Below, piece by piece: positions 20,614 to 44,600 of a stretch of 64,000 nucleotides of DNA (position 1 is the stretch's first letter; each line of letters starts with the position of its first letter). The stretch spans positions 10,044,001-10,108,000 of the forward strand of contig OZ004608.1 in NCBI GenBank assembly GCA_963924565.1, given 5' to 3'. The notes beneath the pieces were generated by a model, which saw only the letters and a program-made list of their open reading frames with translations, did no database searches and had not been told where the DNA came from. A program made the position numbers and the translations under genes. This DNA is from Ascidiella aspersa. Taxonomy: Eukaryota.

Positions 20614-23600
20614 ATGATTTTACGTTTGTTTCAACTTCTGTTCGCCTGTGCATTCTTGGGAAATGCATTTGCAGAAAAGTAAGTGTAATATTTTGTTAAA
20701 TTTTTGGCGCTATTTCACTATTGTACGTGAAAAGTTATGCAAAAAAAAAATAATAATAATAATACCGCTTACCACAACGCATATTGTTTGGGTTAGGGTG
20801 CGGGTTAGCGTTTGGGTAAAGGTGGGTCAAGTAATATTATGTTTATTATTCATAATAACTTGACCCACCCTCAACCAAACGCTAACCCGCACCCTAACCC
20901 AAACAATATGCGTTGTGGTATGCGGCATTTGAAGAAAATGTTTTTTTTATTAATTTTTACGTACAATAGTGAAAAAACGCCAAATTTTTATTTGCGTTCT
21001 GTTTGTTGTAACCATCCAATACATTAAACAAACGAAAGTAAAAGCGGTTTAGGTTTAGTGATACCATATCGTATCTAGTACAATTCCAGTAGTTGCACTC
21101 AAACAAAATTTATGGACTTTTAAAACATTACAATTAAAACGTGCATCTATACGAAAATAGCTTCGGTGTATAAGCTTGAATGTTTCATCTTTCAAGGTGT
21201 AATCTGTATTGTTGTTCTGGTTTAAAAACGGGGTGCTTGTTTAGATTTCTACAACAGTTTGTTTACAGTAATGAAATGAGTTGTCAAAATTTAATTTGCA
21301 CGGAACAAATAAATATGGGAATAAAATAACAAAGAAGAAATAAATATAATAATAATACATGACCTACCAAAACCCAAACTTGCACTCCAACCAAAATAAT
21401 GCAATATAATCCCCAGACGAAAATGTGGTTGGATTCTAGACCAGGGCCCAAATTTGTTGAATGTACAATATAATCAAAATGTATTTTTTTTCAGCAATTT
21501 ATTGCTGTATTTTACTGGTTTTCTGCTTTGTGTTATGTTTCTGTCACTGTATTTGCAGTGCACTGAGCAACAGAACCCAAACAAATAAAAAAAATATTTA
21601 TTCGATTGTGTTTTATTTGTTTTACAGTTTATACACAGTCTACATACCGAAAATCATCCGGCCTGGATTCAATGTTTCTTTTACCGCCACCATTCTTTCT
21701 GGAAACAATGTAAATATTACAGCACGATTGGTATCTGGAGATGGTGCTGCAGATTTGCAGAGCGTTACAACTGTCAACACTGGTAAATTGTTTTTGTTAT
21801 TTATTAAGAAGCCAGTTGGTTAATTAAGATGCATGACGTTTTTGACATTTTAATTGATGTGTTGCAATTATAAAACAATCTTGTGCTTTTTACAGGTTCA
21901 AGTGAACGAATTACTCTTGGACAGGTAATTTAAAACTTGATTAACTTTCAGATTGAATTTCTAAAGTAAATTAAGTTTTATGTTAGAGAATAAAGCAATA
22001 TTAAATAAAACTGCAAAGCTTGTAAATCTAGTTTGACATTAACAGTTGGCGTTTTGTGTTAAATTTTCTGTGGATCCACATTGCTATTTTGACTGGATCC
22101 AGTTTGCTTTATTATTAAGTAATACTTTAGTTGATTAGCAGAGATGTAGTTAAAGCTATTCAAAGATTACATTTAAATTTGTTTTTTCTTGATGGTATCC
22201 ACATTACTGCTTTTCTTGCTTTTTTAGATACCACGCTCATACAGTGGCAGCCACAAGTTTAACTTTACCATTACTGGTGTGGATGAAGTTACTGGGGAAA
22301 CATTGTTCACAAACTCAACCAATGATTTTACTTTTGCCTCAAAGGCACTTACCATCCTTATTCAGACCGATAAAGCCCTTTATCAGCCTGGACAATCCAG
22401 TATGTCTGTGTTCTTGTATCCATACATGACAAATACATGATTCAGTTTTTGTTTAAATTCCTTTATTTTTTCTTTACCACCATACTATTTAAAACTTACA
22501 TTTTTAGTTAAATTCCGTGCCGTGGTCTTAAAGCCTGACCTTAAGCCACTCCAGGGCAATGTCCGGTATGAAGTGACTGACCCAAATAACAACATTGTTA
22601 TGGCCCAAGACGCTGTCTTGTCACACGGAGTTGCCAACGATGAATTTCAATTAAACAAGGACTCTGTTAAAGGAAACTGGGAAATTTCATTTGAAGCTCT
22701 TGTGAGTTTTCCAACATCCAAACATTAAAAAAACCTCTTATAGAATGTATATTGAAGTGTAGTGCTTTACTGTTCCATTTACTAAGGTTTAATAAACTCT
22801 GAACAAATTAGGAGCGTTTTCATGGATTTTTTCAATATACTTTCCAGGGTTACAAAGAAAAGATGACAGTTGAGGTCAAACGCTACAAGCTTCCTAAATT
22901 TAAGGTTGAAGTGCAAGTTCCAACATTTATTTATCCCGAATCGCCTGGTATAACAATCAAACTTAAGGCAACGTGAGTTTTCTGTTTTCTTGTTCTTTTT
23001 TAAGGTTACTCCGCCGCTGTTGGCTCAGATCAATTAAGCTGGAAACTCAGTTAAAAACTATATGGCCTTAAAACTTCATTCGGTTTGAAATAAGAATGTT
23101 TATATAAGAGCCAAAGGTTAATGTTATTGTTAAACACAGCTAATCAATCCATTAGCTGCATGTTTTTATTTGAATTTTTACCTAATAAAAGCTTTTTACA
23201 GCTACACTTATGGAAAACCAGTTAAAGGAAAGGCATCCATTGAGACTCAACTTCAAAATACATGGGGAGGTCCCATCTTCTACTACCGGCCTTCTATTTT
23301 TGGACCCAATGCTCCCAAACAAGGTGTTATCACTAATACCTACAAGGTAATTATAAACCAATAAACCATATCATTTTCTTTCATTTGTATCGAATGAAGG
23401 ACATTGTTTATTAGCACTTTAATTGGGAACATTATTTACCACTTACCTTAAAATCTAAAAGTAGTACTTTATTCCAGGTGTTCAACGGTGTTGAAACCGT
23501 ATTTATTCCAATGGCTAACATAAGAACTTTGTTGGGTTGGGATGGCAACAGCAAAAAAAAGATTACCGTCACCGGAAGCGTCACCGATGGCCAAACTGAC

Positions 23601-26600
23601 ATAACCATTAATGAAACTGTTGAGATCAAAGTGGAAACGACCAACATCAAAGTCGAGGAGCTGTATAAGCCTAAAACCATTAAGCCTGGACTATCCTACA
23701 CAGCCTATGTAAGTGTCATTGCCTTATTCTTGGAGTTAAAAAGTTAGCCGCTTGATTTTATTGCTCAATAAAAATTGTTATTTTGTGTTTCAGATAAAAG
23801 TTGTAGAGCAAGATGGAAAACCACTTATGGAAGCCGACCGACTCAGTCACCATCTGGTTGTTGATCTTACATACAAGTAAGTCCTGACAATTAAAATTGC
23901 TTGATGTTAGACATAAGTTACTCAGAGGTCAGCATGCTACAGCCCAAGGGCATAATTTGCCCGAAAATTGAGATTATCCTGTTTTGTGTAACATTTTGCA
24001 CTGGGCCATGAAAGCGCGATATATTTTTGCCTATTTAAAGCAAAGGCAAAAAATAAATTTTTTCACCTACATAAAAATCCTTTACTTTTAAATTAGATTT
24101 ACCGAACTTTTCTATTCCTGTTGTGGAAACCCAAAAAAACGTCAACCACTAACTATTGTTTGTTTATAGTTATCCACGAGGCCATCGTTTTCCTGAAGAC
24201 CCTGGCACCCCTAGTCCCTGGTACCGACCATCTCGAACCGAGAAAAAAACATTCCCAATCCCCCCAGATGGCACGGTGGTTGTTAAGATTGAAGCTAAAC
24301 CTGATAACTTTACCAGCGTCAATTTCCAGGTAGGTTGCTGAATTGTTGATGTTTGAAAAGAGCATTGTTTTTTTAGACTTTAGGAAAGATATTTGTGATG
24401 CTTTGTGTTCTAAAATCCTTATTTTATCCTGGTTTAACAAGCTGCAGCTAATCTACAGTAGGCGAACTGATTTCCGTGAACCTTTCCAAAGAAACCTGTT
24501 GTTTTATTGTAACGTTATTTTAGCATTTCTAGTGTTTCATCGAAACTAAACATATGAACTATTTTATTTCCTGTTGCATTGTCAAAACCCCTGATAACAA
24601 TTAATCAATTTACAAGTGATTTTTTTTTTGTTTTCAGGCATACGTAAATGGTTCTGACAGTTGGCGAGGCATCAGTTTCAAGGTGGACAAAGCCCAGTCA
24701 CCTTCGAATTCCTACCTTCAACTGACCACAGACGACAGCAACGTGGCGCCTGGCGGCAAGGCCAGTATTACTATCAGGACAACAGAAGCTGTATCGAGCT
24801 TCAGAATTATTGTAAGTAATTGCTGGACAAAATTGGAAATGTAAATATCGGATGTTCCTGTAGGGATAAAAGTTTTGCCTAATGCCTAGTGCTCGGCTTC
24901 TATAGCATTTACAACTTGTTTGCTGATTTATTTGCTTCAATTTATTTTTATTGGGTTGAGTCTAATTTAACACGCTAAAGCCTTCACTACGGCATTAGTA
25001 AATGTAAGATTAGAATTAAAATTAGAGCATTGGGTTTTTCAAATTAAGATTAGAATTAGTTTAAATCATTTTAGTTTTTGTCAAATAAAATTAGAATTAG
25101 AATTGAGTTTTAACTGAAATTTCAACTAAAATTACATTAAATTTTTAATGCGTTTTAGCATAGCCTATGCTTTTTAGAATGTAAAAATCACCAACAAGTA
25201 GTTCCGACCACCCAAATCGTGTTTTTTTGCCTTCGCTAGATTCTCGCTCGCGGTCAAATCATGAGCGACCTGGGCTACATGGCTGCGGCGCCGATGCACG
25301 TTCACAACTACAGTTTTCCCATCACCGCTGATATGATTCCAGCTGTACAGGTGCTGGTTTCTTACGTGCGCGGCGACGGCGAAATCGTTGCCGATTTCCT
25401 CAAGCTTACAGTCAGCACCGTGCTCCGCAACAAGGTGGGTGGATTGCACATTGTTGTAGTTGTTCTTGGCGCATTGTGACGTGACAAACGGCTTGTTTCG
25501 TAAAATGCGTTAGAGCCCGTTTGAGTTAAACGAACACCCGTTGAAGGGCATACGATGCAACTTTTAAAGCGTGTTCTATTCTAGTCTGTTGTCTGTCAAA
25601 TTGTCTTGTTGTGAAGTAGTAAGCAAAACTGCGTCGATAGTAGCATAAGGAATTTGTCGCAATTATACAGAAAAAGAACACTAAATCGGTGGCATTGATC
25701 TGTTGACAACCCTAAATTAAATTAAATTAAAGTGAACTGAACCCGGTTAAGTTTTCCCGTTTTTTTTTGCCGTTTTGGTAAATAGAAAACAAAATTTCGC
25801 TTAACAATTTGTTAAACGCTGAAAAATTTGCCCGCCGTGTTTTGCCTTTTCCCGAGTCCAGAAACGCGTTGTTTTCACTGCTTGATAGAAGGCTGCAAAA
25901 CGCAAAGCGTAGAAACCCGAAAAGTTCAAGTAAAGTTGAAGTGTTTCCGTATCGGGCGCCCACGCAAACAAAAAAACCCGAATCCTTCTCTCAACTTCGC
26001 TTTCTCCCTCTCACTTTAGGTTAGCGTGTCCAGCTCGGCCACGAACGTCGACGCAGGTGATGACGTCAACATCCGAGTGCAGACGTCATCGGCAGGAGCG
26101 TACGTGGGCATGCGCGCGATCGACCAGAGCGTTCTGCTGCTCAAGTCCGGAAACGATATTTCGCAGGAGAGGGTGAGTCGACTTGCTAGTTAGGGGTGCT
26201 GTGCCTTGCGCTAGCTGTACCTTGAAAAACCTCTAGTTTTGTGGTTTTCGAACTGTTTTGTCATAGAACCATTTTGAAAATTATCGAGCCTAAGGACCCC
26301 TGATTTTTTAGGATTTACCCTGACTAACAATTATGCAACACTAGGACTAAGTTTTCATGTAAATAGTATCAAACTATCTTTGCAATATTTTAGTCAAAAT
26401 TGAAATGATTTTGCTTAAAAATCTGATTTTTTCTTGTTTAATGATTGTTGGCACCTACATTATTATCCAATAGGGCTCGGCCAGGTGACAAGGGTTCGAA
26501 AACCACTGTCCTATAGCGGTTGCAAAGTCTAGCGCAATTGCAACGCTCGGGGCTATTGTATCAATTTAATCTTTATTGGTATACTTGTTTATCGCCCCGT

Positions 26601-29600
26601 GCCGTGCGCATACTCGAGTTGCTGTTGTTCGTAAGTTATTGTAAAACCAACGAGCAATACCCGACGGGCAGTTTTACCTTGTTAATTGTTTTAAAAACCC
26701 TTTTTGTATTGAACTCTCGAATTTAATGCATTTTGTCTTTACATAGTTCCACCTGGTCCCTCTATTTAGCATTAGACAAATACGGCCATTCGCAAAGATT
26801 GTTTTGTGAAAACTATACTGTTTAGGGGTTTGGCTTGTATTTGTTGCTTGAGCTATGACGTTAGGAACATGAAAAAGTGTTTTTCTACTCGGGTATACCC
26901 CAGTTTAAAATCCTCTTACGTCGTTATTTTAAAGCGGTCATAAGGTTACACCTTTAACAAAGGACAGCGCGAATACGAGCTTTCACTTCCTCGTCTTAAA
27001 AACCCATGCACTGCTAAGGTTATGACCCCCATTTAGCTGCTTATCTGTTCTCTCGGCCAGATTACCTCATGAATTTATGACGTAAATCCGACAAGACATT
27101 TTTGAGTCGCAACAAAACGTATCTTATGTCTACTTTCCTGAGGTGAAATTGAAGAATGGCTACAATAAGGTTAACCCATGCAAATTTATGAAAAATAAAT
27201 TTGGTGTGTTTGTATATGTATCTTTTAAAACTATAAAAGGGTAGTTCTTTACGTGTGAAATACCTATTGTAATGAAATTGTCCATTTTTTTACCAGTTTG
27301 CATGGCGCTATAAAAGAAACCCATGCCCAGTGGTTGTAAAATTATACAAAAAAATTAATCCATACCGTTTTTAGCTTATAACATGGCCTCGCTCAAACGG
27401 CAACGCAAAACGCTGTTATATGCGCAAAAAATGCAAAAACGCTGCCGTTAAACGCTCGCCATTCAACAACACCACCGCTTTGTAGATCGTCAACGACTTG
27501 AACGGATACTCGAACGCCGACGGCTACTCGTCCAGCGATATCTTCTGGCGCTGGTGGTGGTGGTATCCTATTCCGTCCGGCGGTAAAGACGCCTCCGACG
27601 TTTTCTCGGTGAGTGTTGCGCCGTTTCCATTATTGGGTCGTGTTGTGCAGACCTTTTGTTTTAATTTTCGCCTACTGGAGTATCTGCCAAAGGTTACGGG
27701 TCTTTTATTTTGAAAATACGTTCCTTAAAAAATGTCACATTGTGGCAGATAAACACTGCACACACCACTTGTATTGTACCTCCACACTAAACGTTTTTGT
27801 CCAGCGGTCTCGACATTTTAAAATTCATAGTAGTTTATGCATGCTAGCACAACTCGCTTAACATGCGATTTAAAAGAGGGCGATGCGATCTTAGGATCTT
27901 CTTGGCTTGCCCTTAATTATTGCCTTTTTCTTTAAAAGCTGTAGGGTAATTGACAAAAGTTTTTTGTTTAACTAAAAATACATTGGTAATTTGAGTTTCC
28001 AGAACTATTGGAAGTAATAAATATAAGCAACAGTCCTTTGAGAGAAGTTACCTAGTTCTGACGTTAAACGTATCATTAAAATACAATTACCGTGCTGTTT
28101 GATAAAATAGATTGTGCATAACATAACATTTCCACGAATTGTAGCAAACGTGTTCACGTTTTTCAAACATATGTAATGTGTTTACAGAATAGAGCATACA
28201 AATGCGTTATGTAATCAAACAGTTCTAACTCTGTGTGTGTCTGATAAGCTCGGGGTTAGAACCAAGCAAACAGCAAGTGGTTAGATATGCACTGCCACAC
28301 CTGTGAGGCGTGTCGCAGCTCTATCTTTACAGTAATCGCACGATTATGAGTAAAACGTGCTCATGCCGAGATACAGTCAAGACACCCGCAAGCAATATAC
28401 GTGCTTTTAAATCGCTATTTACCAGCAATCCAGCATGTCTATTTCCTTGAGCTGTCGAGCTAACTCTCTCGCAAAATATCGTTCAAGATTTTTCACCGCG
28501 TCAGCGTATATTACGTTTATTAGATTGTACATCCATACTTCCAGTTATTAAAAAAATTGACCTTTGATTTTCTTTGAATTTTCACAGAAAGCCGGAGTCC
28601 TCGTTTTAACCGACGCCTTGCTGTTTAAGAGCGAACCAGAGTGTAAGTAACCTTTGGGTGTTTTTTTTTTAGTTGCTTTATCTTTAGACCGCATTGCTGT
28701 ACAGATGACCGTTAAAACCGGGCAATTTATAGGTTTTTGTCCGCTATGTTGTTACATATTTAAACAGGGGTTGCATATTTGTTTGCTGTTAAATGTAATT
28801 CTGGCGCGCTGTAAGTTTGCTGTCAAGTTTTGAACACCACGTTGCAAACAACAAATGAATTTTATATATTACTTTTGTTGACGAGAAAAAAAACCTTAAC
28901 CGCCGAGCCGTCAACCTTACAGATCTCGGGCCAGTGTTTTTTCAATTGGAGTCTAACGCCCTTGGCGGCGGCGAACAACCGTTCCTTTCTAGGCTAGCGG
29001 TCGCTGGCCCTCCGGCTGGGGCGTCTGGTGCCAGCCCGCCGGCCCCCCAACCCAGGACCCTTTTCCCCGAGACCTGGCTCTGGGACAGCGACATCACTGG
29101 GTAAATTGGCGGCGGTTGTTTCCCGTGGTGGCACGATCGTTTATGTACCGGGGTCAGTGCGGGTCACTGCCGTTTGTGGTGACTACGCGGTAAATCGATC
29201 TTTTATGAATGCAAGGTTGGCATGACGTGTGTGTATATATTTGTGTGCGAGTTGGACCCGGTGGTATCTTGGGTAAGACAAATGGAAAAAGACGACAGAT
29301 TGGGGCCAAAACCCCGCTCGTTCACGTTCCCGATCGCCAGCTGTGTGAACTGCCTTGCAGATTTCGGATACCCGTATTACCAGAATCGCCTCCTCGGTGG
29401 TGTCCCAGTCGCCTTCGCTATCAACCCTGGCAGGAGCATCGGGCCTCAGCCCGCGGCGCTTTCCCGTAAACAAGCCAGTCCAAGTGCGCCCAAGCCGCGT
29501 ACCCTCTTCCCTGAAACGTGGCTCTGGGCCGACCGAATCACGGGGTAACTAAATTGTCCGTCCACTACGAGACGGTGTTCGCTTCCTCATTGGGTTGCGC

Positions 29601-32600
29601 CTGGGTTGTTTAACCCCTTGCTTTGTCGGTCTCCGCTGTTTGATGCTACTTAACCGGTGTGTCATTTCGCTTTGTGGAAGAACCCAAGCGGCCCCTAAAT
29701 CCTCTCCCATCGCGGAAAACAAAATAAAAACAAACGAAAAACTAAGCCCGGATTCGCTTCTCGGACCTAATCCTTTAGCGAATTACAGTATCAACGCTTT
29801 CAATGGATTACTGGTCAATTTAACGTCACCTGTGGCTCTTTGTAGACTTGCGTTGGCCCTTCGCATTCTTCCAATCCCAACGAGGTCCGGCTTTTCCAAA
29901 TGTCCAGCGTATCGTTGGCGGCCGCCGCGTTCAAAGCAGCCCCGCGCCAAAACCAAGGAGCCTTTTCCCGGAGACGTGGCTATGGGCCGACCGAATAACC
30001 GGGTAATTTACATCGGTCCTGCGCTTTAAACCAATGCGCTTCGACTGCGAGTTGCGGTGGCAGGACGCGAAACTCCATTATCGAGTTTTAAGGGCTTTTT
30101 GGGTGCTTTAGCCGCTTTTTTAACGGGGATGTGTCGATTTGTATAGACCCCGATTACTATGTCAATTACCTGTTGGCCGATATCGACGATAGGAGCCCAA
30201 TCGTTCAACGCGGTCCAAGCGCCGGTCGCATCATGAGCGGTTCCGCCTCTAATGGAAGCCCCGCCCCAAAACCCAGGACCCTGTTCCCGGAGACGTGGCT
30301 TTGGGCCGACCGAGTAACCGGGTAATTTTAACGCCCCTTGCCCCGATTTCTTCGCTTTGGCTGCGCGGTTACGGTGGGTCGACGGCGAATCGCCATCGAG
30401 ACTTGGGGAAAATGTGTGTTATGTTTCGATTATACTGCGGGGTAGTTTAGTTCTATAGTGTGTTGAAGCTTGGTTCACATACGCCTGGCGTTAAATGCTA
30501 ACGTCATTCTCAATTTACGCGCATAACACGTCGGCTGCGTTAACGGCAAATTTTCTCCCGAAGGTAAACTTGAAGTACCGACGTTTTTCGTTTAACGCAC
30601 AACGCGTCTAGCGTGAAACAACCATTACAATTCAAGTAGCATAGTGAGCCGATCGGCATTTTGAGGTATAAGTTGGAAGTTGGTATAAGTTAGGTTTCGG
30701 TTTGCTTTTGTAGATTTCCCGATCCGCTATGCGTTCGGCGGCGGTGTTCAAGCCTTTGCCGTCGACAGCCAAATAGTGGCCAGACAGCCCGAAGCGTTGC
30801 GGGGCCCTGCCCCGGCCGCTCCGGCCAATAGCAACCCCACGCCACGGACCCATTTCCCCGAGACCTGGCTGTGGGACAGCGGTCTTACTGGGTAACTTTG
30901 CTGGCTACTCTATGGGTGTGCTTAGAAAACTGCTTCAAATGCTGTTTTTTTTCTCGCAACGGACTCGCATGTGACCTGGAGGTGTTAACAACGCTATATC
31001 CGCTTTTTCTTGTATATTTAGTAACCAAACATGGGCCCCTTGAATCCTTACTGTTACGAGGTTTGCCCTTTTGTCACTATTTGCCAAGTTTGTCCAATAG
31101 GCGTTTCCATCCTAATATTTTTGGCCCTTTGCGCGAAAATCAAGAATTTGAAATGTACAAACATCGGTTATTGTCGAAAAGACAAACAGATAATCAAAAG
31201 AAAATTCTTTGTCTGTTTTCGTTTTTAACCTGTCTGGTCTTTTTCGTCAATTGCGCTCAAATTTTCGTTAAACAGTCGCGTCAGAAAAGCGGCAAACAGC
31301 GTAGCGAATGTCAGGCCTAGATTTTTAAAGTCGTTATTTTCGACCCGAAACACGCAGACGGGGATTATTACGGAGGCGGAGACTATTTGTTCGAGATACA
31401 GTTTGACGGCGGCGATATGGAGGCTCCAGTAATAATGGCGGACTCTGATGGGGAGAACGTTGAAAGCGAGCTACCGCAAGCTAAAAAAATCCGCTCGTTT
31501 TTTCCGGAAACGTGGCTATGGACGGAGGGCAGGACAGGGTGAGATAAGACTGGGGACAGGTTAAGGGGGTTTATTTATACTTCAGTTGCAGTTATATTTT
31601 TTTTATTTTGGATATGCATTTTCAGTTTTACAGATTATTTTTTTAGCGAGCCATTTTTAGCGAGCTCGTGTTGGTCGTCTTAGGTTTTAAGCCTAAAGTG
31701 GTTCTATTTTTTAAGACTCTTAATTGTTTTGTTTTTAGAAGCCCCTTTTGATAGTTCAACTTTGTGAGCTTAACCTGATCTATATCCCTCGCCGGTTTCG
31801 TGAGCCCAGTTCTATCAGTATAAAGTTTTAAGCCAAATCATTTCCACTTTTGGATAAAACTGTACCAAGAGATGAGGCGTTGTGTGTAGTTTTACCCACA
31901 AGAGAGTTGCAATATTGTGGAAGTCCTTTATGGTGAGCAAGTTACGGGGATCTTAAAAAAAGTGAAAAACAAAAAACTTCACGCACATAACAAGTACCAA
32001 GGTTTGGAGAAAAGTCTTAATTTTATGAATACACGCCAGGACTGCCAGTCAGCACACTGCGAGGACCGAATTTGAATATGCCCCAAATCGAATCGCAGCA
32101 GGCAGCAATATATCGCTCTCAGCTGTAGCGCTCTAGGTTGGTGAACGAAAGCGGCAGAATCGAGAGGATTGGCCGGTAGTGATCGTAGCGAAATTACCAA
32201 TTCGCAAACGTTAGAATTCGAATGGTGTGGTGCCAGCGCCAAGGCGACCAATTGTCAGGAAAGAAAATTGACTGAATCACCGCCTTTCGATTCCATGGCC
32301 ACCAACTTGACGTGAAGGCTGCGCTCGGCTGAACGTGTAAAAGGCACACCCATATGTATTTTAACGCTATTGAAATGAGCTTGCCTGTCAAATTCGCGTT
32401 AACAGAATATGGCCTTGTTCAAACTAGCGAGTTACTTCCGCCTACGTTCACGTGAAATGCTTTACAACCCGCGATAAATTATTACCTTTTGCAATACGTT
32501 GGTGGTGGTGCAATGACTGGCGTTTTCTCCATATTACGTTGTATAAACCCGGTTTATTTCGGGGAATGCACAGATACGGTTCAATTATATTTGCGTTTAC

Positions 32601-35600
32601 GAATGAATAACAATAAAATTAACTGATCGAATTACCAAACGTATATGAATTTAAGGTACCACCTAAAATGTTCTAGTTAAAAGTTCACTTAATGGCCATT
32701 TCAAAATGAGATAAAAATAAATACTACAAATTAGGCGATCAAATGACATAATTTTAATGTTCACCAGAATGGTCGCTTCTTAAAGCAGCTTCGAAAAAAA
32801 ACAACCTTTAATTGACCAAACGACATACCCAACGCAAACGCAACTCAGTAAGCAAGTTTTAAGTCGGCCTTCATTCAATCCAGTTCCGGTGATGCTGTTC
32901 AAAGGCAGCGTAGCAGCAGCTGGCCCCAACAGGGAAGCGGCCGTAGCGGTTACTGACGATACCGTACACGAGGCGCCTAACCCTAGGTCCTACTTTCCGG
33001 AAACTTGGCTATGGAGCGGCGCTATTGCCGGGTATGGCGCCCCCGGAACGATTGCACTGTTGTTGCATGATGCCGAGTTTCGGCGTTAAAGCGATTTTTT
33101 TTTAAGCTGAGGCTTTCGTTGGTTGCCGATTTATGAAGAAGTTTTGTTTTGATATTTTCAGCTGTTTTCCTTGTTTCTTGTGCTGTTTGTATTTTGTTCA
33201 GGACGTACGCTTTTGCACGGATCCCAAATTTTATCCCAAATGGTCATAACTTAAAAGAATGGATTTCGCTTACCTCTGATAACTCGACTTTCGTTTATTT
33301 TAGTTAACCTTCGAAAATCAGCCTTTTCCACAACGGTATAACACTAAAACTTCCTAAAAACACACAACCAACACCGCGAGAGAAAACTAGAGGAAGGCAA
33401 AACTTGCTATATCTCCCGCTAATACGCAACGCAACGTTGTAAGCGAAACTCAGTCGTTTGCAATTGACTGAACTTTGCTTTGCCCCTCGCGCAGATGTAG
33501 ACATCTACCCGGTTTTCGCCATGGCCGAGTCGGCCAATTTTGACTTGGACGACGGCAATAACGCCCTGAAACGCGGCCAGGCGTCCGGCGGCGCCCAGGC
33601 CCCCGCGCCCCGCACCTATTTCCCCGAGACCTGGCTGTGGGACCACTCGCTTACCGGGTATATAACAAAAATAACATTAAAATCACGCCCTCACAATGGT
33701 GTAGCGGCTGCTGTGCATGACTTGCCGGTTCTGTGCGTTACTTTTGTGCATTATATACGTTTTTATTTGACGGTGGGAATGTTAACGCTATACTATACGT
33801 ATAACTGTTAATTTGCACGTGGTGTCAGAGATGGCGTGCGTTTTTACTGTTTTTATATGTTTTTTCGAATTTTGTGCAGTGTTGCAACTGTGGCACCCAC
33901 GCTGTGAGCACTGTTTTTTTTGTAAAAATTTGTACCACAAAAAAATAAAAAAAAAATACATTTTTACTTGAAAAAAAATTAGTGAAATGCGATTGTAGAA
34001 TTAATATTTTACATTCACAAAGCCTTAAAATAAGCATATATAACCCAAATAAATCGAAATTTTGAAGTAAATGCCCCGCAACAAACAACTAGCTTGTTTG
34101 ACGGCCAATTGCAACAAACAACTAGCTTGTTTTGACGGCCAAAATATTGCCACGGCAGATGCCTACCCCTTCGTTTACGACTCGTCGGAGAGATTGGGTG
34201 ATTTTTTTGACGCCCTGTTCCCTTCCATGACCGTCTCCTCGGCCCCAGCAATAACCCCGAGAACCCACTTCCCTGAAACCTGGCTCTGGGAAAACGACCT
34301 GACCGGGTATGTCCCCCCCCACCCCCCACACACACACTATCGCCCGTTGAACGTTCTGCACGAAATCACCCCCGTATTGCGTCGCCATTCAAATATTCGA
34401 CGTCGAAATTGTGTAGTAGTCGGTCGAACATTTTCACGAGTTAAAACGAGCATGCCACTTCTACCAAATCACACATGTTCTTCGTCGTTGCACACTTTTG
34501 CGCCCAACCGTTTGTTTTGTAAAGATTGTTTATGCTGATCGGTTGAACAGAATGCCTTTGTCCATTCCTCTTGCAAAAAGGGTAACAAAATCGATCGTTT
34601 TAGGTCTTATAAACCAACAGAATCGCGCACTCAGAATATACCCAATATTTTGAACTTTTTCAGCAGGATTTAGTATACCTAGAAGTCTTCTTGTCTAATC
34701 TAACCTAGCCCTGATGTGTCCTCACCTCCTGAGTTTAACCCTAAAGCCTTACAACAGGGGCAGTGACGTTTAACCTTTTTTCTCCGTGTGTCAGTTGACG
34801 ACTACCCGGTTTACTTTATGATGGAAGCCGCGGAGGCCGAGTTCGACTCTGACGTAACAATGGTGGGCAATTCCGCTGGCGGGGCGGCGCCCACACCGAG
34901 AACCTACTTTCCCGAAACCTGGCTTTGGGACGAAGGCTTTGCCGGGTAAAAAGCGAAACTGCCTGTAGCGCGAATGCGGAACGAGTAATCAGTAGTCTTG
35001 TTTCTTACTAGCGACAAGTCCTCTTCCCTTTACGTCGCTAATTTATTTTCATTCCAAATCGAAATCCGCTAATATTCGTTAGCTCTGCAAACACGGCTTT
35101 CCAATCGAGCATTTTAACGATTCACCCAATGCTAATTATAGTTTTCCGGACATTTTATTAGAGTATTTTTCAATATTAGAGTATTTTTCAATATTAGAGT
35201 ATTTTTTTTTCAAGTTTCCAATGATTTCCTCGCATGCGCAAGCGTTACTTCTGCGATTTTTCATATAGAACAACCCAAATTTTGCACGATTTAATTTCTT
35301 GTGCACGTTGTAATTTGCGGTAAAACGTTTTTTTGCAGCTCTTTCATGATTATTTTGGAGAGGTTACCTTTTAGGTTTAGGTTGTGGGAAAAAAATTATC
35401 ACAAAATAATGCATTCTCTGCGGATTAAGGCAAAGGTTCTTGAAACTGTGACGACCTGGTGCGTCGTTTTAATTTCCTAAACGGATGAGTGTGAACAAGG
35501 CCAATCATTAAAATATATATACGATTTATCTGCAAAGTCAAACAAAATGTGGCGCCACCGACGACAGGCCGGGAATTGTATATAGCTTAGCTTAAAATAA

Positions 35601-38600
35601 ATCCAACCGATGTCTGTCTTATCTCTCGTATGGTTTAAAAATTCCACGATGACGCAAGTGAAGCCGACCGCTTCTCTGCACGCCTTGCACCAACGCTTGG
35701 TAATGGCTCGAAGCGATCGCGATCCACAGGCAATCGCGATTTGCGGCTTGACAAGACCACCTTCTCTTTTTAGACCGCTTTGCCATTGAGCCTGGCTTTT
35801 TTCAAATTCAGTCGGCCCGTTGAAGATACCGCCTGCAAAAGATGCTTCTTTGGAAAAGAGGGTGGCCAAAGAAAGCGGCTGCTGTTGAAATAGTCATAGG
35901 TTACTGTATTTTTGAAATGGACAATACGCAAAAAGCAAGGTAAAAATGGGATTCTCCTCTTTGTTGTCATTGCTCAGTTCAGTACCTTTTTAAAAACATG
36001 TGCACTTGCGAACTTCCAATGAAAAAAAAGTGAGACCTGACCTTTCGAAGCAAACAGGCCTTGAAAGCGTCATCAGATCGCTACGTTTTCGTGGAAAATC
36101 CCCGATTCCCCATGTCGAGCAAAACAAATCTGTCGCGCGTTTCGTAACTCTCCAATATTTTTCTTCGATTTTTGCCTTCGGAGAAGACTGACGAAATTTC
36201 TTTTCCTGGAAAAGCCCAAGTATTCAGTTTTAAAGCGTTTGCTGTTTTGTTTACCTATACGACTGTATTCAATCCCAGGGCTCTTTTCGCCTTTCGCCCG
36301 TTCTCGGATGATGTTGGGAGCCGCTCCGGGCATTTCAGGCAGATTCCAGGCCCCTGCTGAACCCCGGTCGCATTTTCCCGAGACCTGGCTGTGGCAGGAC
36401 GGGTTGACCGGGTAAAGCAAAAATCTAACTGTAGATTTTGCAGATTAACGCTTGGAGGGACAAAAAATATCGAGCACGTGCAGAAGTATGTAGCATTTTG
36501 TGAATGATTGACGAAACGTTTTGCAAACCGTTCACAAAATGCGAGCAATACTTCTATTATGTGCTTCGACATTCCTTCTAGGAATAACATAGCATCCTCG
36601 CTCTTATGTATGTAGACGCAAAGTAAGTAGATCATTTAGCAGTCACACATAGTTAACGCTCATGCTTCAATACAACCGCAACTGAAATCCCTTTAACGCC
36701 CCCCCCCCCCAAAAAAAAAAAAGAAAACCACCACGAACTTTCCTTAAAGAGAGGTCTGATGCTTCTGATTGCAGTCGAAAACGTGGTCCTCTATTCGATG
36801 TCGCGGAACTTCGGATTGGCGCAAGACGCCCAACTCGACTTTGTAGGTCCAATCGTGGGCGCTTCGCCAATCGGTAACGCCGCACCACCCAAACCGAGGT
36901 CCCACTTTCCCGAGGCATGGCTCTGGGACAGCTCTCTTACAGGGTAATCCCCGGCATTTCCAATCCAATCAAGAACTCGCGCACCGCATGACGTCATACT
37001 CCTGACCCCCACCGCCTATAGTCACTGTGGAGGACTAACTTACATCATCGTCTTTTGCATTGCAATGCGGCTCTGGCGACGTGTCCTGACGCAATTTACA
37101 AACGAGTTGGCCAAGGTCGTGAGTTCGAATCTCACCGCAGAAAAGGCGTTTGCAAATCTAAATTCCTAACATGCAATTGCTACGAAATGTCTTGAGTCCT
37201 TGAGTCTTGCCACAGAAACAGTCATTTTTTTAATTTTAAAATTTGAATATTAAATATCGGTTTAAGCAATTGCTACGAAATGTCCAAGGTCGTGAGCTCG
37301 AATCCCACTGCAGACCAGTCGTTCGTAACTCTAAATATCGGTTTAAGCGATAGCTACAAAATGTCTCAGGTCGTGGGTTTAAATCTCACCTCTTAGCATA
37401 GTTATTTGCAATAGGTAACCTGAATGTCCTTGGTTCGTGAGTTCGAGTTGCAACACCTGCTGATTTATTGTAGACGTAATATTACATAAAGTCGAACCGC
37501 TTCAAATTTAGATTCAAATTGCAGACGAACGATATGGGCGGCCGAGATATGGGCTGCCGAGATATGGGTCCAGTGGCCGTGTGGGTATGGCGTTTCCGAT
37601 GGCAAACAGCCGCATACAATATAAGGCGCTCGCGCCTCAATCGTTGGACATCGGCGGCTTTTATCCCACTCCGGCTAAACCCAAACCGAGGTCCCACTTT
37701 CCCGAGGCATGGCTCTGGGACAGCTCGCTTACAGGGTAATCCCCCGGCATTTCCAATCCATTCAAGAACTCGCGCACCGCATGACGTCATACTCCTGACC
37801 CCCACCTCCTATAGTCACTGTGGAGGACTAACTTACATCATCGTCTTTTGCATTGCAATGCGGCTCTGGCGACGTGTCCCGACGCAATTTACAAACGAGT
37901 TGGCCAAGGTCGTGAGTTCGAATCTCACCGCAGAACAGTCGTTATCTCTAAATTCCTAGCTGGAGAAATTGCTACGACACGTCCGAGTACGAGATTTGAA
38001 ATCTCACTCTAGTTTAGACCAGTCCTTTGTAAATTAAATCCAAATCTCGGTTTAAGACTTCAAGCGATTGATACCAAATGTCCGAGGTCGTAAGTTCAAA
38101 TTTCACTGCAGACCATTCGTTTGTAACTCTAAATCTCAGTTTCAGCGATTGCTACAAAATGTCTGAGGTCGTAAGTTTGAAAAAATTGCGATATTTATTT
38201 GCAGCAGGTAACTCTGTTACACATACCTGTCACTCCGTCATGGCGTTGGTTCGTGAGTTCGAAATGCCACGCCGACGACTGATTTATTGTTCCTTGCTTG
38301 TACGAACTGCGACGAACGGATCTAGGATATAGCTTATAGGCCGCTATAGATGTACTACTATATACAAAGTCGAACCCGCTTCAAATTTCGATTCAAATTG
38401 CAGATAAACGAAAACGATATGGGAGGCCGATGTTTAGGTCCCGTGGCCGTGTGGCCACCAGCCGTATACGGTTTAAGGCTCTCAAGCCGGCGTCGCTGGA
38501 TATTGCCCGTTCTCCCACTCCGGCTAAACAGAAACCGAGAACTCATTTCCCCGAAACTTGGCTGTGGGACGCGTCGCTAACCGGGTAAAAGTCACTATAT

Positions 38601-41600
38601 GTCCTGGACTACATGTCCTGGACTGCCGTTGTTTTCATTCAGTGAAACACCGTCAACCGACTTGTAATGTAATGGCAGTAACCCACTCTAACACGTCACT
38701 CACTCACTCGCTCGTACGAAACAACCTTTTCCATTGTCATTTATTTAACAAACGCGTCGAAAGATTGCAAGGCCTGGGCGCATTAAAAAAAACTGGCACT
38801 GGTGTAGAATCCTACCACAACGTTGAAACATTATTAAACCAACGCAGAATATTCGGGATAGGGTGTCGGATGGGATTTGGGTGAGGGTGGGTCTAGTATT
38901 ATTATAATTATTTAATAGCATTCCTAACTCGAATACAAAACGACTTGCTAACTAGTTTCTGCTGTAGTTGTTGGAGAGTTTAAAGAGGCCCTTCAGTCCC
39001 TCAAAATACTTTTCAAATCACTTCGCAGTTCGAGTAATTAAACCTACAGACAGCTGACGAGCATAAAGACCAGCTTGAACTTTGATTACACGTGCGGAGA
39101 GCCCGAGGGTGGGAATGTTTGCTGCAAGAAAGCAAACAAGCGGCATATCAAGTATCAAACCCGCATTTCAATCAACCAAAATGACGCGTTGGGCAGATAT
39201 AAAGCAGGGGTGGGCAATTATTTTTTGAGAGCGGGCCTCATAAGAAACAGACAATGTCTTGGCAGGCCGTGTCAAAAAAGTGGACCTCGAATACATATAT
39301 AACGTACGATTCCTTTTAAAAGAAACTATAAATATCGTTGTCTAGACAAGCTTGTAAGAGTAGGAAAAGGTGCAGATGCTTTACAAGAGTAATGTATTCA
39401 ATAAAAATTCCGGAATCAAAAGAAAAAACATGTAAGGTTTACTTTTGCCTAAAAAAGGTATATTGTGGATAAGCCGCGGTTCAGATTATATTGCTTGGCT
39501 GGCCGACGTTTTGCCAGGTCTGAGCTAAAGGGTCTACGTATTAAATACCATTCATATTTGAACGTCTTCAGGACCTTTAATTATAGGTTCGAATTTAACG
39601 CCGTTGCGTTTCGAAGGTCGAAACAAAATTGTAAACTATTATTTTAAACCACGGCTAAATCGTTCAAACCGACGAACAGCTACCACTGCGTATCGATGCC
39701 ATTTCAATACTGTGCAGGTTTTATCATTTATTTTTTAATATTTTACTTTTTTTCACGTGCATGCTGCATGCTTACCTCGTCGCATGAAACTCTTTTGTTC
39801 ACTTTTTCCGCAATCGCCTTCGGGCTGTTTTTGTTCATAATAGATTATTATAAGCTTAGGTAAATAAATATTTTTTGTATAATAAATATTTTTTGTATGT
39901 AGTTGAGATTAAATGTAGTGTATGTGCTTACAACCAAGGTAGGATTTTGGAGATAAAGTAAGATTCTATATAAGATAGCATATGTCACGTCTCGTTTTTA
40001 TGCCTGCTTTCCAATGTTATTTGCCCAATTGCATTCCCTTGAAATATTTTTAAAACGTTTACTTTTCTTTAAATGCTATGCTTTGTAAATCCGCCCGTAT
40101 GTGACATGCGATTTAACTAAAACACTTAAAGGGATTAACTAAGCAGGCATAAAGACGGACAGTCAAACTTAAGAGTCACGTCGTGAACTTGTAAAATTGA
40201 CTTTGCTTTTTGCCCGATTTAGCGCCGACGGTGCAGCGACCTTCGACACAAAGGCGCCCGACACTATTACGTCGTGGATCCTGAGCGCCTTCTCAGTATC
40301 GGACGAGTACGGGTTTGGACTCGCCGACACTTTCAAGGTGAGTAGTCGAGTAATCGAGTAGGTGAGTAATGGTAAGTTATTTACAACTTGGAATAGTTGC
40401 TGTTCATTTAACTTGGAATCAAAAACATACTTTATTAGCCTCAATCATTTTTCGCGGTGACCTAAATACTAAACGTAAGTATAACAGTCATGCTTTGGCG
40501 ACCAAATTCACTTCCCTAAACTAAATGACTTAAAACACAAATAAATTATAGTGCTAATTAGTTTAAATTCAATGAATATAAATCATGTTTCGTATTGTTT
40601 CTGCGGTTTTATAATAAGTTCTTTACAACTTGGAAAATGTGATGATTATTTCGAGACAAAATTTATTTCCTTGAAATCACACAAAAAAGTTTCTAATAAA
40701 GACTGGCAGACGTTTCTCGAACTTTCTTCACCCGCCGCAAATTGCCTTTAATCCGCCAAGGTGTGTTGCCAAAAATTTCATCGCCCTCTTATTTCTTTCT
40801 TGAAAAACCGCAAGCGTTAAAACCTCGTATGCGCTGATAAAATTTAAAACCTCGGGCGCTCATTCAATTAGCCGCTGTTTATATCAAGAAAGGTTGGAAA
40901 GCTTCAAGCGTATGCCAAGGGGAACTACGTTACGGCGTCATCGGGAGCTTTTGTCGTGTTACACGCTGATTTATTTTCCCAACGCGTATTTGCCGCCGAT
41001 TCACCTCGCAGTAAACATGTTGTGGTGTGGCGTCGATTTATCATCGCGTACACAAAAGGTTGCCGGCGCGTGTTTTTCTCAATTGTATGCCTTTTGCGTC
41101 AAAAGTGCCCTTTAAAGCCACTTGAAAGACGTGCGAGATGAGCCTAGGCCTTTCTTGCCGCCGTTGTTGGAATTTGCTTAAAGTCCAGTAACAAAGGGGT
41201 CGCTTTGGTTTTTAAAGCAGCCAAAATTCTCCTTGTTCCTGGTGTGGGTCATACGGAAAGTTGTTTTTGATTTTAATAACTAATCCTAAAACACGCGTTG
41301 ATTACGACACGTAAAGTAGTTGCCACACCTGAGCTTCAAATTGGAGAAACCTTCGGTAGAGTTCCAAGTTAAAGTTATATTTTCAATTTTTAAAAACAAG
41401 ATCACTGTGTCTAGCGTTTTAAAAAATGCGCTAAAAGTCCTTTTGTTTCTTTGCAGAGTTGAACGTTTTTTATTATATTTTAGACTTTACGAAACCGAAT
41501 TGATTGGTCGGGCTTTAAAACACAAGCTGGTTTGAAAGTCGGCTTTGGCCGATTCACCAAAACAAAGACACCGAACTCATTTGTTCTTCCTTGCAGATCA

Positions 41601-44600
41601 CCGTCTTCCGTGAGTTCTTCGTGAGTCTCAACCTTCCACTTCGCATCACGAGGGGTGAAGCGATCATCGTGCAAGCGACCGTCTTCAATTACTTCGACAC
41701 ACCGCAAACAGTGAGTCGTTCGTTGTTTTTCTGGTTTGTTAACCCGGCTTTTTAGGAGCCGCTGTACGCTATGCTTGGTCTCTAAGACAAAACAGAGAAA
41801 TAGCGCATTGGGTAATGGCGAAGGTATGCGAGAAATATCGCTACCCTTTATAAGTATCTGTGCTAAAGAAATTAATGCTATAAAAATAACCACAATGTTA
41901 CCCAACATGGTCGAATATGTCTTTAAGTAAATTAGATCAAAATACATTGATACGACCTATAATGTATCTAGCACATCTGGTCGACAACCAATTTCACTTT
42001 AATCAATTAGATTTAAACGCTTGATAACAGGTTCGTGCTCTTAGCCGAAAACCACTAAAACAATAACAACCCCCTACCAAGCTTAAAAACAAAAATTCAT
42101 ATATAGGTAAAGCATTAAGTGTTTTTTGTTGGGACACTTCGGCTTCAGACGCCTTACAAAAGGTCCAAGACCTTTTGTACAAGTGGATCGAATGACCACA
42201 CCTGGACACTTAGAAAAGAAAAAAACCTCTCAAAGAAAGTTGAAGTGCACTCGGCTTGTGACGCTCCATGGCACATGGTTGCCAAAAAACGCGGGTGCAG
42301 GCGAGCGGAAACACTTCGAAAGCCATATGCAATTAATTGCAGCAACTGACATGTTGCTGTACTAGCAATCCCACACTACTAGTTTCGTGTGGAGTCGTTG
42401 ACGTGCTCACAGCAAAGGTCTCGGTTGAAACTGATGTATTTCTTTGCCTTGTCGACCGAATCTGTATTCCGAAACGCAGTGTGATTATATTTGATTAATC
42501 TGATTCGAAATCACCACTACCACTATATATATACACAGTTTTTCAGTCCCGGTACTTTAGTCGTACAACAGAAACGAAACCTCATAGCCGAATAACCAGC
42601 CATCTAACGATTTTTCATATTGTTATTCTTTTTGTTAATTCTGCCTAGTACGCAAAGTAATCCATTTACCTCGCCTCGTCCGCCAAAAACGAGCGCACCC
42701 GCTGCCTATGTCCTTAAGTTTTACTTATTCTACATGTAGCATAGGCCTTTCATACATTTTTACGTTCTAACTATTGAATCTGGAATTAGAAGCATACAAA
42801 ATGTCGTCCCCTTTCAATGGTCAAACCAACCCTTAAAATATTCTATTCGGCCTTATGTTAATCAAAGCACTTTAATCAATTCGTAACAACACAAAAAAAC
42901 TTCTGGCGGCTTTTGACCCCTCGCCCCTGACCCGACCACTTTCTCTTCACCCAGGTCCAGCTGACCCTGAGCCAGAGCGCCAACTTCGAGTTGATCACCC
43001 CCGGGAATGACCCGATCGCCGCCGGCCCCATGCGCACCCTCTATGTACCCAGCAACGGCGCCGTGTCCGTCAAGTTCCCGGTACGCATGAACAGCCTCGG
43101 GGAAGTCCCGATCACGCTGTCGGCCGTTGCCGAGCTGGGCCAGGACGCCCTTACCAGGGTCGTATACGTCAGGGTAAGGATTCGATATTTATGCTTCGGA
43201 ATATTTTTTTATATATTTTTTTTCTTTTTGGTGTGTAGTTCGTTCTTCAATTTACTTCGATCCAGCATACCTCTCTCCTACTGACAAATTTTAAGTGGTT
43301 ACTTGTGAAATTTATCGTTAACATTACCAGGGTCTTGTACGTCAGGGTAAGGATCTAATGTTTGTGCTTCGTTATATTTTTTTTATTTTTATTACTTTTG
43401 GTGCGAGGTTCGTGCTTTCCCCTTTTCTATCCGGCACAACTGTCCTCAATTGTTGAATTTTTACTGTTTACTGGTAAAATTTGCCGTTAAAGTTTCTAAA
43501 GTCGTGCTTAATAAGTCGAATATCTAAAACTCTCATCGAAAGCTTTTTTTCAATAGCTTGTCTGCATTTCTGCGTTTTCTGTTTTAATTTCTTTAGCGTC
43601 TTGTTTCCTTAAAACTATACTTTGAATTAAACCTTTACCTAAACTGTCTTGTGTATAGTAGTTAAAGTGACTATAAGCGTTTAGTAATTTAGTTAGTATT
43701 AGACCAGGGGTTAAACTTTTATAGCGGTGTATTTATGGCGCACCAATTAAAATCTTGCTGGGCTGAAGAGTCGAGTCCAGTCCCCATAACAGTATAACAC
43801 GAATCAAACTTAACCTCAACTTTCTTATTTTGTGCCGTTCACAACACCTTCCTTAAACGTCCTTTGTATACACAGCCGGAGGGCATCCAGCAGTGCTATT
43901 CCTCCTCGATCCTTGTAAACCGCGAGAGCGACCGAGATCCGACCAGCACCGAAGCCCTTGAGATCCTGATTCCAGTTGGAATCGTGCCCGGGTCCGAAAA
44001 GGTCAAGCTATCTGTTTACGGTAAGCCTTCGCGACCCGGCATCGGTGTTCAAGATTTTTTTTATGAGAAGGGTCGGTTTTTAGGGTTTGGCTTTTGTTTC
44101 CACTTGGGATTTTTGTTTACGCTTTCTACATAGATTTAAAGATTGGCTTTTGTTTCCGTTGAGCAATTTTAAAAGATCTCGGTTATTAAATCGCTCCCCT
44201 CAAAACTTCTTTAAAACACAGACCTGTTTTATAGGTTTATATTTGTGCAAGTTTTGTGTTTTGATTATTACATATTTAAAATATTGTTTCGACTGATACA
44301 CTGGTAGCGTCTCCATTAAACTTCCATCACCAACAAATAGTCCCAAAATACGGAGTTCCCAAAGTCAAAACTACAGAAGACGCCCAAACGATCTAAAGCA
44401 GCGCTTTATTTTTATCCTTTTCAATTTTTTCACATTACATTTTTTAATTTTCAATTCTATCTTCAGGCGACATACTGGGAAACACGTTAAGCAACTTGGG
44501 CAACCTGCTTCGTATGCCTGGCGGTTGCGGCGAACAAAACATGCTCGGGTTTGCTCCCGACGTCTTCGTCACCGACTACCTGAAGAAGGCGGGCAGACTG

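Follow-up and report, generated by a model that had tools for sequence, protein, structure and literature searches.

The question raised by a 64,000-nucleotide stretch of the Ascidiella aspersa genome (assembly GCA_963924565.1, contig OZ004608.1, positions 10,044,001 to 10,108,000 of the forward strand; here the window, numbered from its first letter) is whether a thioester protein of this ascidian carries, among its alternative baits, a copy of the switch by which its own serine-protease zymogens are activated. Lying in the window is a CD109-type thioester gene with a tandem array of 14 bait exons, which we refer to here as cassettes, and in the reading frame of cassette 3 is the string RIVGG, as a first-pass annotation of the DNA had reported. 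We hold, with moderate confidence, that selection has shaped cassette 3 as a bait for Arg-specific proteases acting on zymogen activation sites, and that these proteases would then be trapped by the thioester.

29908..29922, + strand: R-IVGG site of cassette 3, predicted P1 Arg and P1'–P4' Ile-Val-Gly-Gly, in the bait-exon frame
29917..29919, + strand: P3' codon, polymorphic in public runs (Gly in the window; Ala in X1 and X3; Pro in X2 and X5)

Spelled by the codons CGT ATC GTT GGC GGC and preceded by Val-Gln (29902–29907), the site reads VQRIVGG, a word common to the window and one Styela bait. It follows the chymotrypsin-family (S1A) activation pattern of P1 Arg or Lys, then Ile/Val and Val/Ile, and R-I-V stands in the window and in all four runs that cover it. 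Cassette 3 carries no Pfam family, and downstream of it lies an A2M domain, not a trypsin domain; the string is a look-alike and not a zymogen site.

The likeness was scored against the animal's own activation sites. For 60 of the 150 listed matches to the trypsin domain the N-terminal region was extracted, and in 41 of these the site could be read; R-IVGG is the commonest site (24 of 41), and Asp occupies P3 in 31. A P1–P4' profile was built from 27 distinct own-zymogen sites, and the null came from shuffling the 14 cassettes 20,000 times with their composition preserved. RIVGG scores 18.1 bits, a value reached by 15 of the 20,000 shuffles (P = 7.5e-4, for a motif picked after being seen), and none of 13,522 non-bait residues outscores 8.2 bits, the best non-bait score. 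The match to host activation sites is above chance.

Four neighbouring cassettes had been credited with similar sites. The strings are all present (RLAVAG at 28991, RLLGG at 29387, RIMSG at 30227 and RMMLG at 36305, the last in cassette 11), with intermediate profile scores for RIMSG (9.3) and RLLGG (9.2) and background scores for RMMLG (−1.9) and RLAVA (−6.5), by which RLAVAG and RMMLG are ruled out as activation-site mimics. The RLLGG of cassette 2 is a weaker likeness, located elsewhere within the bait than the cassette 3 site. Cassettes 3 and 4 agree at 51 of 56 tail bases, and RIVGG and RIMSG align without gaps; as the two cassettes are sister duplicates with homologous sites, RIMSG is not independent evidence. 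Three of the five motif codons keep their residue between them (R, I and the last G, two via silent changes), against none of eight flanking codons (p = 0.035). Of the five sites first listed there thus remain a strong one, the duplicate of it and a weak one, and the idea that the baits act as zymogen-site decoys would hold for the copied site itself but not for the array as a group, only cassettes 3, 4 and weakly 2 fitting it.

Because the motif was picked post hoc, a test in orthologues weighs more than the shuffle P of the window; the baits of other ascidians provide one that does not depend on the way the motif was spotted. They comprise 24 distinct sequences from Phallusia, Ciona, two Clavelina genes and five Styela genes, with allelic or duplicate cassette versions and one mis-joined gene model left out. 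Three of them score at least 11.7 bits, a count that none of 20,000 shuffles reaches: Styela XP_077965469.1 reads (FG)VQRIVGG, the same in both Styela annotations though neighbouring residues differ, Styela XP_039257844.1 reads TESRIVGS, and Clavelina XP_076814767.1 reads QENRIVGS. The check in relatives that the first-pass annotation had proposed thus comes out in its favour: R-I-V-G recurs in three ascidian lineages (the window, Styela and Clavelina). When each window bait is paired with each bait of the other ascidians (336 pairs), no common word is longer than VQRIVGG (shuffle P = 0.002), and once it is masked the flanks are without similarity (z = 1.5). In 38 ascidian baits, all four R-I-V words continue with G (0.01 expected), and no enrichment is seen for Arg before hydrophobic residues in general (26 against 22.7 expected). 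Coincidence, with the assembled allele of an unstructured bait rich in Gly, Arg and Val reading RIVGG by accident, would fit the post hoc spotting of the motif, the Gly allele found in the assembly only and an 8-mer match in an unrelated gene, but it is largely refuted by the independent appearance of the word in baits of Styela and Clavelina (0 of 20,000 shuffles; 7-mer P = 0.002) and is barely credible.

Outside the tunicates the site was not found: none of 152 distinct baits of molluscs, amphioxus, echinoderms, arthropods and vertebrates reaches 11 bits (Fisher test of 3/24 against 0/152, p = 0.002, on rows that are not independent), and 10 full-length rows missed by the extraction (4 amphioxus, 6 tick) hold no such word by eye, short fragments having been skipped. 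The vertebrate CD109 baits scanned contain no activation-site mimic. A search of cassette 3 against 1.84 billion representative proteins gave two matches, a spurious repeat protein and a thioester-containing protein (TEP) fragment without the motif, which is no proof of absence, since short variable exons are hidden inside clusters.

This distribution bears on the possibility that R-I-V-small is a general trypsin-like site, selected against foreign (microbial, parasite or digestive) Arg-specific enzymes and resembling an activation site through shared subsite preferences and not because host cascades are its target. We regard that as doubtful, although it is the main rival: the 14 cassettes resemble a chemistry panel (acidic in 6 and 10, polybasic in 13 and 14, others Met- or aromatic-rich), and three alleles at one codon, with amino-acid-changing polymorphism (pN) near silent polymorphism (pS), are consistent with host–pathogen diversification. 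In the available excerpts, a bacterial protease cuts Drosophila Tep2 and Tep4 in their baits (PMC12846816), and the induction of scallop TEP isoforms depends on the pathogen (cited in PMC7016707). However, Arg alone would do for such a purpose, yet the enrichment is particular to R-I-V-G and not to R-hydrophobic, and the 152 non-tunicate baits, likewise exposed to foreign trypsin-like enzymes, lack the word.

Residing between two constant exons, the cassettes form an array whose members each end in FPE.WLW....[TA]G. The exons are as follows.

28588..28642, + strand: constant exon before the array, with a phase-1 donor
28923..29100, + strand: bait cassette 1 (RLAVAG at 28991, background score), acceptor picked from sequence
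29361..29544, + strand: bait cassette 2 (NR-LLGG; RLLGG at 29387), joint to the downstream exon in run X3
29846..30002, + strand: bait cassette 3, 157 nucleotides (3n+1), acceptor joint 28642->29846 in X3, donor GT at 30003 from sequence
30147..30321, + strand: bait cassette 4, sister duplicate of 3 (RIMSG at 30227–30241), acceptor picked from sequence
30714..38584, + strand: bait cassettes 5–14 (acidic, basic, Met- or aromatic-rich), joints for 10, 12, 13 and 14
40223..40337, + strand: constant exon after the array (A2M domain, PF00207), joints

All 14 cassette exons are 3n+1 in length, which follows from the phase used for picking acceptors. They enter in phase 1 and leave in phase 2, so that two in a row, or none, would break the frame. 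Run X3, whose kind is unrecorded, is taken as RNA from its exact GT..AG joints; it joins the upstream constant exon (ending at 28642) to cassettes 3, 12 and 14, and cassettes 2, 10, 12, 13 and 14 to the downstream one (starting at 40223). Acceptors are confirmed by reads for cassettes 3, 12 and 14 via joints and for cassette 2 via a contig start, and RNA run X5 has the cassette-10 joint in two reads. Among the 15 of 18 joints examined there is neither a cassette-to-cassette joint nor one from cassette 3 to the downstream exon. Annotated Ciona, Clavelina and Styela isoforms contain one cassette each. The array is of the mutually exclusive bait-exon type known from BgTEP2 and Tep2, and splicing of the upstream constant exon into cassette 3 is seen directly. 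A comparison for complementary docking words, which could enforce such exclusive splicing, gave only 7–11-base matches, by eye no more than chance would give, and in five stretches of about 10 kb at other TEP loci of the genome there is at most one FPETW-like exon each and no cassette array.

Within the array, cassettes 12 and 13 (window 36887–38588) have a common 202-base block that is 98% identical and 55 of 56 tail bases in common, with unrelated baits, whereas cassettes 13 and 14 have the bait part in common; cassette 13 appears to have arisen by recent recombination between 12 and 14. The baits of cassettes 13 and 14 (37525–37735 and 38404–38584) are polybasic repeats that may suit furin-like or Arg-specific enzymes, and those of cassettes 6 and 10 are acidic, their variable part being without Arg.

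The array belongs to a gene whose span and functional motifs are listed below.

21599..58907, + strand: whole CD109-type thioester gene (tblastn exon map; Pfam)
44523..44537, + strand: intact thioester motif GCGEQ (from sequence; TED domain PF07678)
45569..45571, + strand: His in KVSHRAMQ, at the position expected for the hydroxyl-reactivity His, placed from motif context

The domain order, from Pfam matches on the window exons (PF01835, PF07703, PF00207, PF07678 and PF07677), is MG2, BRD (bait), A2M, TED and receptor-binding. From its motif context, the His of KVSHRAMQ is the putative equivalent of A2ML1 His1084, the position of hydroxyl reactivity. The thioester exon is 65–74% identical to Phallusia, Ciona, Clavelina and Styela proteins. 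In a similarity ranking against the PDB, the Phallusia orthologue scores highest with CD109 (657 bits), followed by A2ML1 (429), A2M (412), TEP1 (355) and C3 (237), with E = 5.5e-196 for human CD109 (8s3o) and E = 4.4e-122 for A2M. On these similarities the gene is assigned to the CD109/iTEP type of thioester protein in the alpha-macroglobulin superfamily, nearer to CD109 than to A2M or C3. The role of the hydroxyl-reactivity His in A2ML1 is described in the available part of PMC7864068. Two alternative ends of the gene are discernible on the + strand: a short hydrophobic tail of glycosylphosphatidylinositol (GPI) type (51752–51979), which stops at 51979, and beyond it TSP1 and LamG exons (54825–58907), an alternative end by sequence, exon map and Pfam.

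In CD109, bait cleavage exposes the thioester and the protease is conjugated (PMC12927315, in part), and in A2M the protease that is caught is determined by the bait sequence (PMC8267569, in part). By the reading that we favour, an Arg-specific zymogen-activating protease would cut cassette 3 at the predicted R-I bond; the cut bait would expose the thioester, which would conjugate the attacking protease, making isoform 3 both decoy and trap. Candidate targets would be own cascade or auto-activating proteases, for example the activators of the three Q-R-IVGG zymogens described below. Their prime-side pockets would favour Ile-Val, as those of zymogen activators must, and selection would act mainly on P1 Arg and P1'–P2' Ile-Val, with P3' tolerating Gly, Ala, Pro and Ser. 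In real zymogens, Gly-Gly at P3'–P4' is needed mainly for the fold of the activated enzyme, which would explain the tolerance of the bait for Ala, Pro and Ser.

Several observations weigh against this reading. The P3' residue is Ala or Pro in all four runs covering the site and Gly in none. Among the 41 own sites first read none has Gln at P2, D-[NHP]-R being dominant. The variable part of cassette 3 holds four further Arg (five in total), including RR directly after the motif, so that the cut site is a prediction only, and for A2M the available part of PMC8267569 reports that a single Arg is enough for trypsin capture. The site is absent from 3 distinct Ciona baits, 1 Phallusia bait and 8 tunicate-like baits, although Phallusia, the closest relative, has one isoform on record and the Ciona and Phallusia lists may be incomplete. 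The motif precedes FPE by 19 residues in the window and by 16–17 in the baits with RIVGS, but by 33 in the VQRIVGG bait of Styela, and with a spacing of 33 against 19 residues orthology of the cassette with the latter is not established; the ascidian cases may reflect either one conserved cassette or convergence. The longer word NVQRIVGG also occurs in an unrelated CHGN-family (chondroitin-synthase) glycosyltransferase open reading frame (ORF) of the same genome, so that such words arise without bait function; this occurrence is treated as coincidence. Amino-acid-changing variants in cassettes 1–4 (5 at 510 sites) are about as frequent as silent ones (2 at 168), so that purifying selection on the baits is at present weak or gives way to diversifying selection, and nothing follows from finding R, I and V constant in a sample of this size.

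Gly at P3' is clearly not fixed within the species, and a strict IVGG mimic, as first proposed, is not supported, with Gly, Ala and Pro all at that position. Pro in X5 rests on two of two reads, run X4 leaves cassette 3 uncovered among the pieces examined, and, since an allele can be lost from a contig, Gly may still be present in the samples. The Ala allele RIVAG scores 11.9 bits (P = 0.010 by shuffles) and the Pro allele RIVPG 11.0 bits (P = 0.026). Given Ala or Pro in the four runs, the stable core within the species is R-I-V-x-G; together with the RIVGS of Clavelina and Styela, the core appears to be R-I-[VM]-small-[GS]. The 14 variant rows over cassettes 1–4 include five amino-acid-changing and two silent variants in cassette exons and six in 1132 intron bases. 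Taken over cassettes 1–4 (28923–30321), 7 and 14, 8 of 10 base changes in cassette exons alter an amino acid. Cassette exons 1–4 vary more per base than the introns (7/694 against 6/1132), a candidate sign of diversifying selection on baits.

The P3' alleles form a one-step chain of Gly, Ala and Pro codons, and the codons at this position in the sister cassette 4 (AGC) and in cassette 2 (GGT) suggest Gly as the older state. Such a chain, with non-Gly alleles in all four runs, would fit an ancestral ascidian mimic, once functional, that has begun to decay or to be retuned in this species (from Gly via Ala to Pro; already R-I-M-S-G in cassette 4). This is unlikely: R, I and the last G are retained between cassettes 3 and 4, two of them via silent changes, and cassette 3 is still spliced. 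The direction of the Gly/Ala change is moreover uncertain, as the Gly allele perfects a 10-base palindrome; by template switching, Gly could derive from the Ala allele.

A different function for the same core would be activation in place of trapping: the freed Ile-Val N-terminus, tethered to the thioester protein, would dock in a zymogen's activation pocket, and the isoform would switch on or hold the zymogen, much as the N-termini of staphylocoagulase and streptokinase insert into such a pocket. The conserved part of the site is precisely the Ile-Val pair that occupies the Asp194 pocket, Ala or Pro at P3' is tolerated in the species, and the motif stands 16–19 residues before FPE in three of the four RIVG baits. 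We consider this very improbable: CD109-type proteins have no known zymogen-binding surface, and, in the available part of PMC9352918, A2M needs no particular bait sequence and the cut bait is proposed to retract. Combining the trap with this idea in its boldest form, a dedicated, splice-selected isoform would copy the universal R-IVGG switch and act as a covalent brake on a cascade-starting host protease, with the site kept or re-invented in three ascidian lineages and tuned by its P3' alleles, and the freed Ile-Val would also dock in the zymogen pocket; this we put forward only tentatively.

As to which proteases could be the targets of the trap, a codon-pattern search for Q-R-I-V-G-G in the genome gave 24 places (control 14): three true activation sites before a trypsin domain, the window, the chondroitin-synthase-family ORF and 19 without protease context. 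One of the three, on C6 (21.57 Mb), belongs to a TSP1-TSP1-EGF-trypsin protease; the other two, about 22 kb apart on C5 (16.71 and 16.73 Mb), are tandem proteases without an identified non-catalytic domain, with weak, poorly discriminating best PDB matches to tPA, uPA and elastase-type enzymes, and no kringle was found near them. The C6 enzyme and one C5 enzyme have Asp just before the catalytic GDSGGP, which we take to be position 189; they are therefore predicted to be Arg-specific and could themselves cut such sites. Nothing ties these three zymogens, the TSP1-TSP1-EGF-trypsin protease and two domain-poor proteases, to the MASP, clotting or phenoloxidase targets named in the first-pass annotation, a proposal that is accordingly not supported, and MASP genes of this genome were not located via their Sushi domains (150 of 1739 Sushi candidates scored). 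Recent capture of the motif from a protease gene is ruled out, the DNA matching the three Q-R-IVGG genes at 25–31 of 70 bases with the motif included. Elsewhere in the genome are two tandem trypsin-family clusters (C2:12.58–12.74 Mb and C2:14.70–14.77 Mb), in which most N-termini read D-[HNLP]-R-IVGG.

The closest homologues of the gene are the alpha-2-macroglobulin homologue of Ciona intestinalis (NP_001027688.2; XP_078484790-2) and the CD109-like isoforms of Clavelina lepadiformis (XP_076814764-8) and Styela clava (XP_077965464-71), which differ only by one bait cassette each and are automatic annotations without remark on the site. Against the 14 cassettes of the window stand 3 in Ciona, 4+4 in two Clavelina genes and 8 in the main Styela gene, in lists that may be incomplete. 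Multiple CD109-like bait isoforms are also annotated in amphioxus (Branchiostoma, about 10 or more per species), abalone (Haliotis), mussel (Mytilus), oyster (Crassostrea) and sea star (Acanthaster), and from these many isoforms such arrays would be widespread. Human CD109 (8s3o) resembles the window family in bait cleavage, thioester conjugation and a monomeric trap; the available part of PMC12927315 mentions no alternative bait exons and describes a bait that several classes of protease can cut.

As in the window, a variable region encoded by tandem alternative exons and followed by a conserved C-terminal part is found in Biomphalaria BgTEP2 (12 bait exons), Drosophila Tep2 (5) and scallop (Chlamys) CfTEP (6); the available part of PMC7016707 reads them as a broadening of the repertoire against diverse or pathogen proteases and describes no copy of a host zymogen site. 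Manduca sexta serpin-1 has 12 alternative reactive-loop exons, and its serpin-1J inhibits prophenoloxidase (proPO)-activating proteases, so that here too, in the excerpt of PMC1761132, alternative exons provide different baits, some of them aimed at the host's own cascade proteases. Serpins differ from the window gene in fold and in a mechanism without thioester trap. The loops of Manduca serpin-3 and Drosophila Spn27A resemble the proPO cleavage site, a mimicry of proPO and not of the IVGG site of the chymotrypsin family.

Already known, then, are the gene, its family and the alternative use of bait exons, as are, among serpins, alternative-bait inhibitors of host cascades. A literature search over titles, abstract openings and passages of mostly open-access papers found no alpha-macroglobulin-family bait that copies the IVGG site and no ascidian array. 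We judge the cassette 3 site to be a genuine variant of a known system, with statistical support and, as it seems, so far without remark; the polymorphism at one position weakens the case. Alternative bait exons of invertebrates are usually read as widening the catch of pathogen proteases, and little conservation is ascribed to bait regions; a word that distantly related ascidians have retained or evolved anew in their baits, identical to the host zymogen switch, suggests that one isoform faces the animal's own cascades. If the trap reading is true, isoform 3 should covalently tag zymogen-activating proteases in the closest invertebrate relatives of vertebrates, which would bear on the first regulation of clotting- and complement-type cascades, and the natural Gly, Ala and Pro alleles would be a built-in test of which subsites matter.

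Further features of the window lie outside the array. Adjoining the thioester gene is a DDHD-domain phospholipase-type gene at about 8.4–15.4 kb on the + strand (PF02862). The intron 3' of cassette 14 contains a high-copy repeat element (38795–39500; very high depth, many loose ends), and an intronic tandem repeat with eight copies of a unit of about 43 bases occupies 47707–48065. On the − strand, at 60738–61889, is a 383-codon open frame of low complexity with a 101-base internal repeat and no Pfam match.

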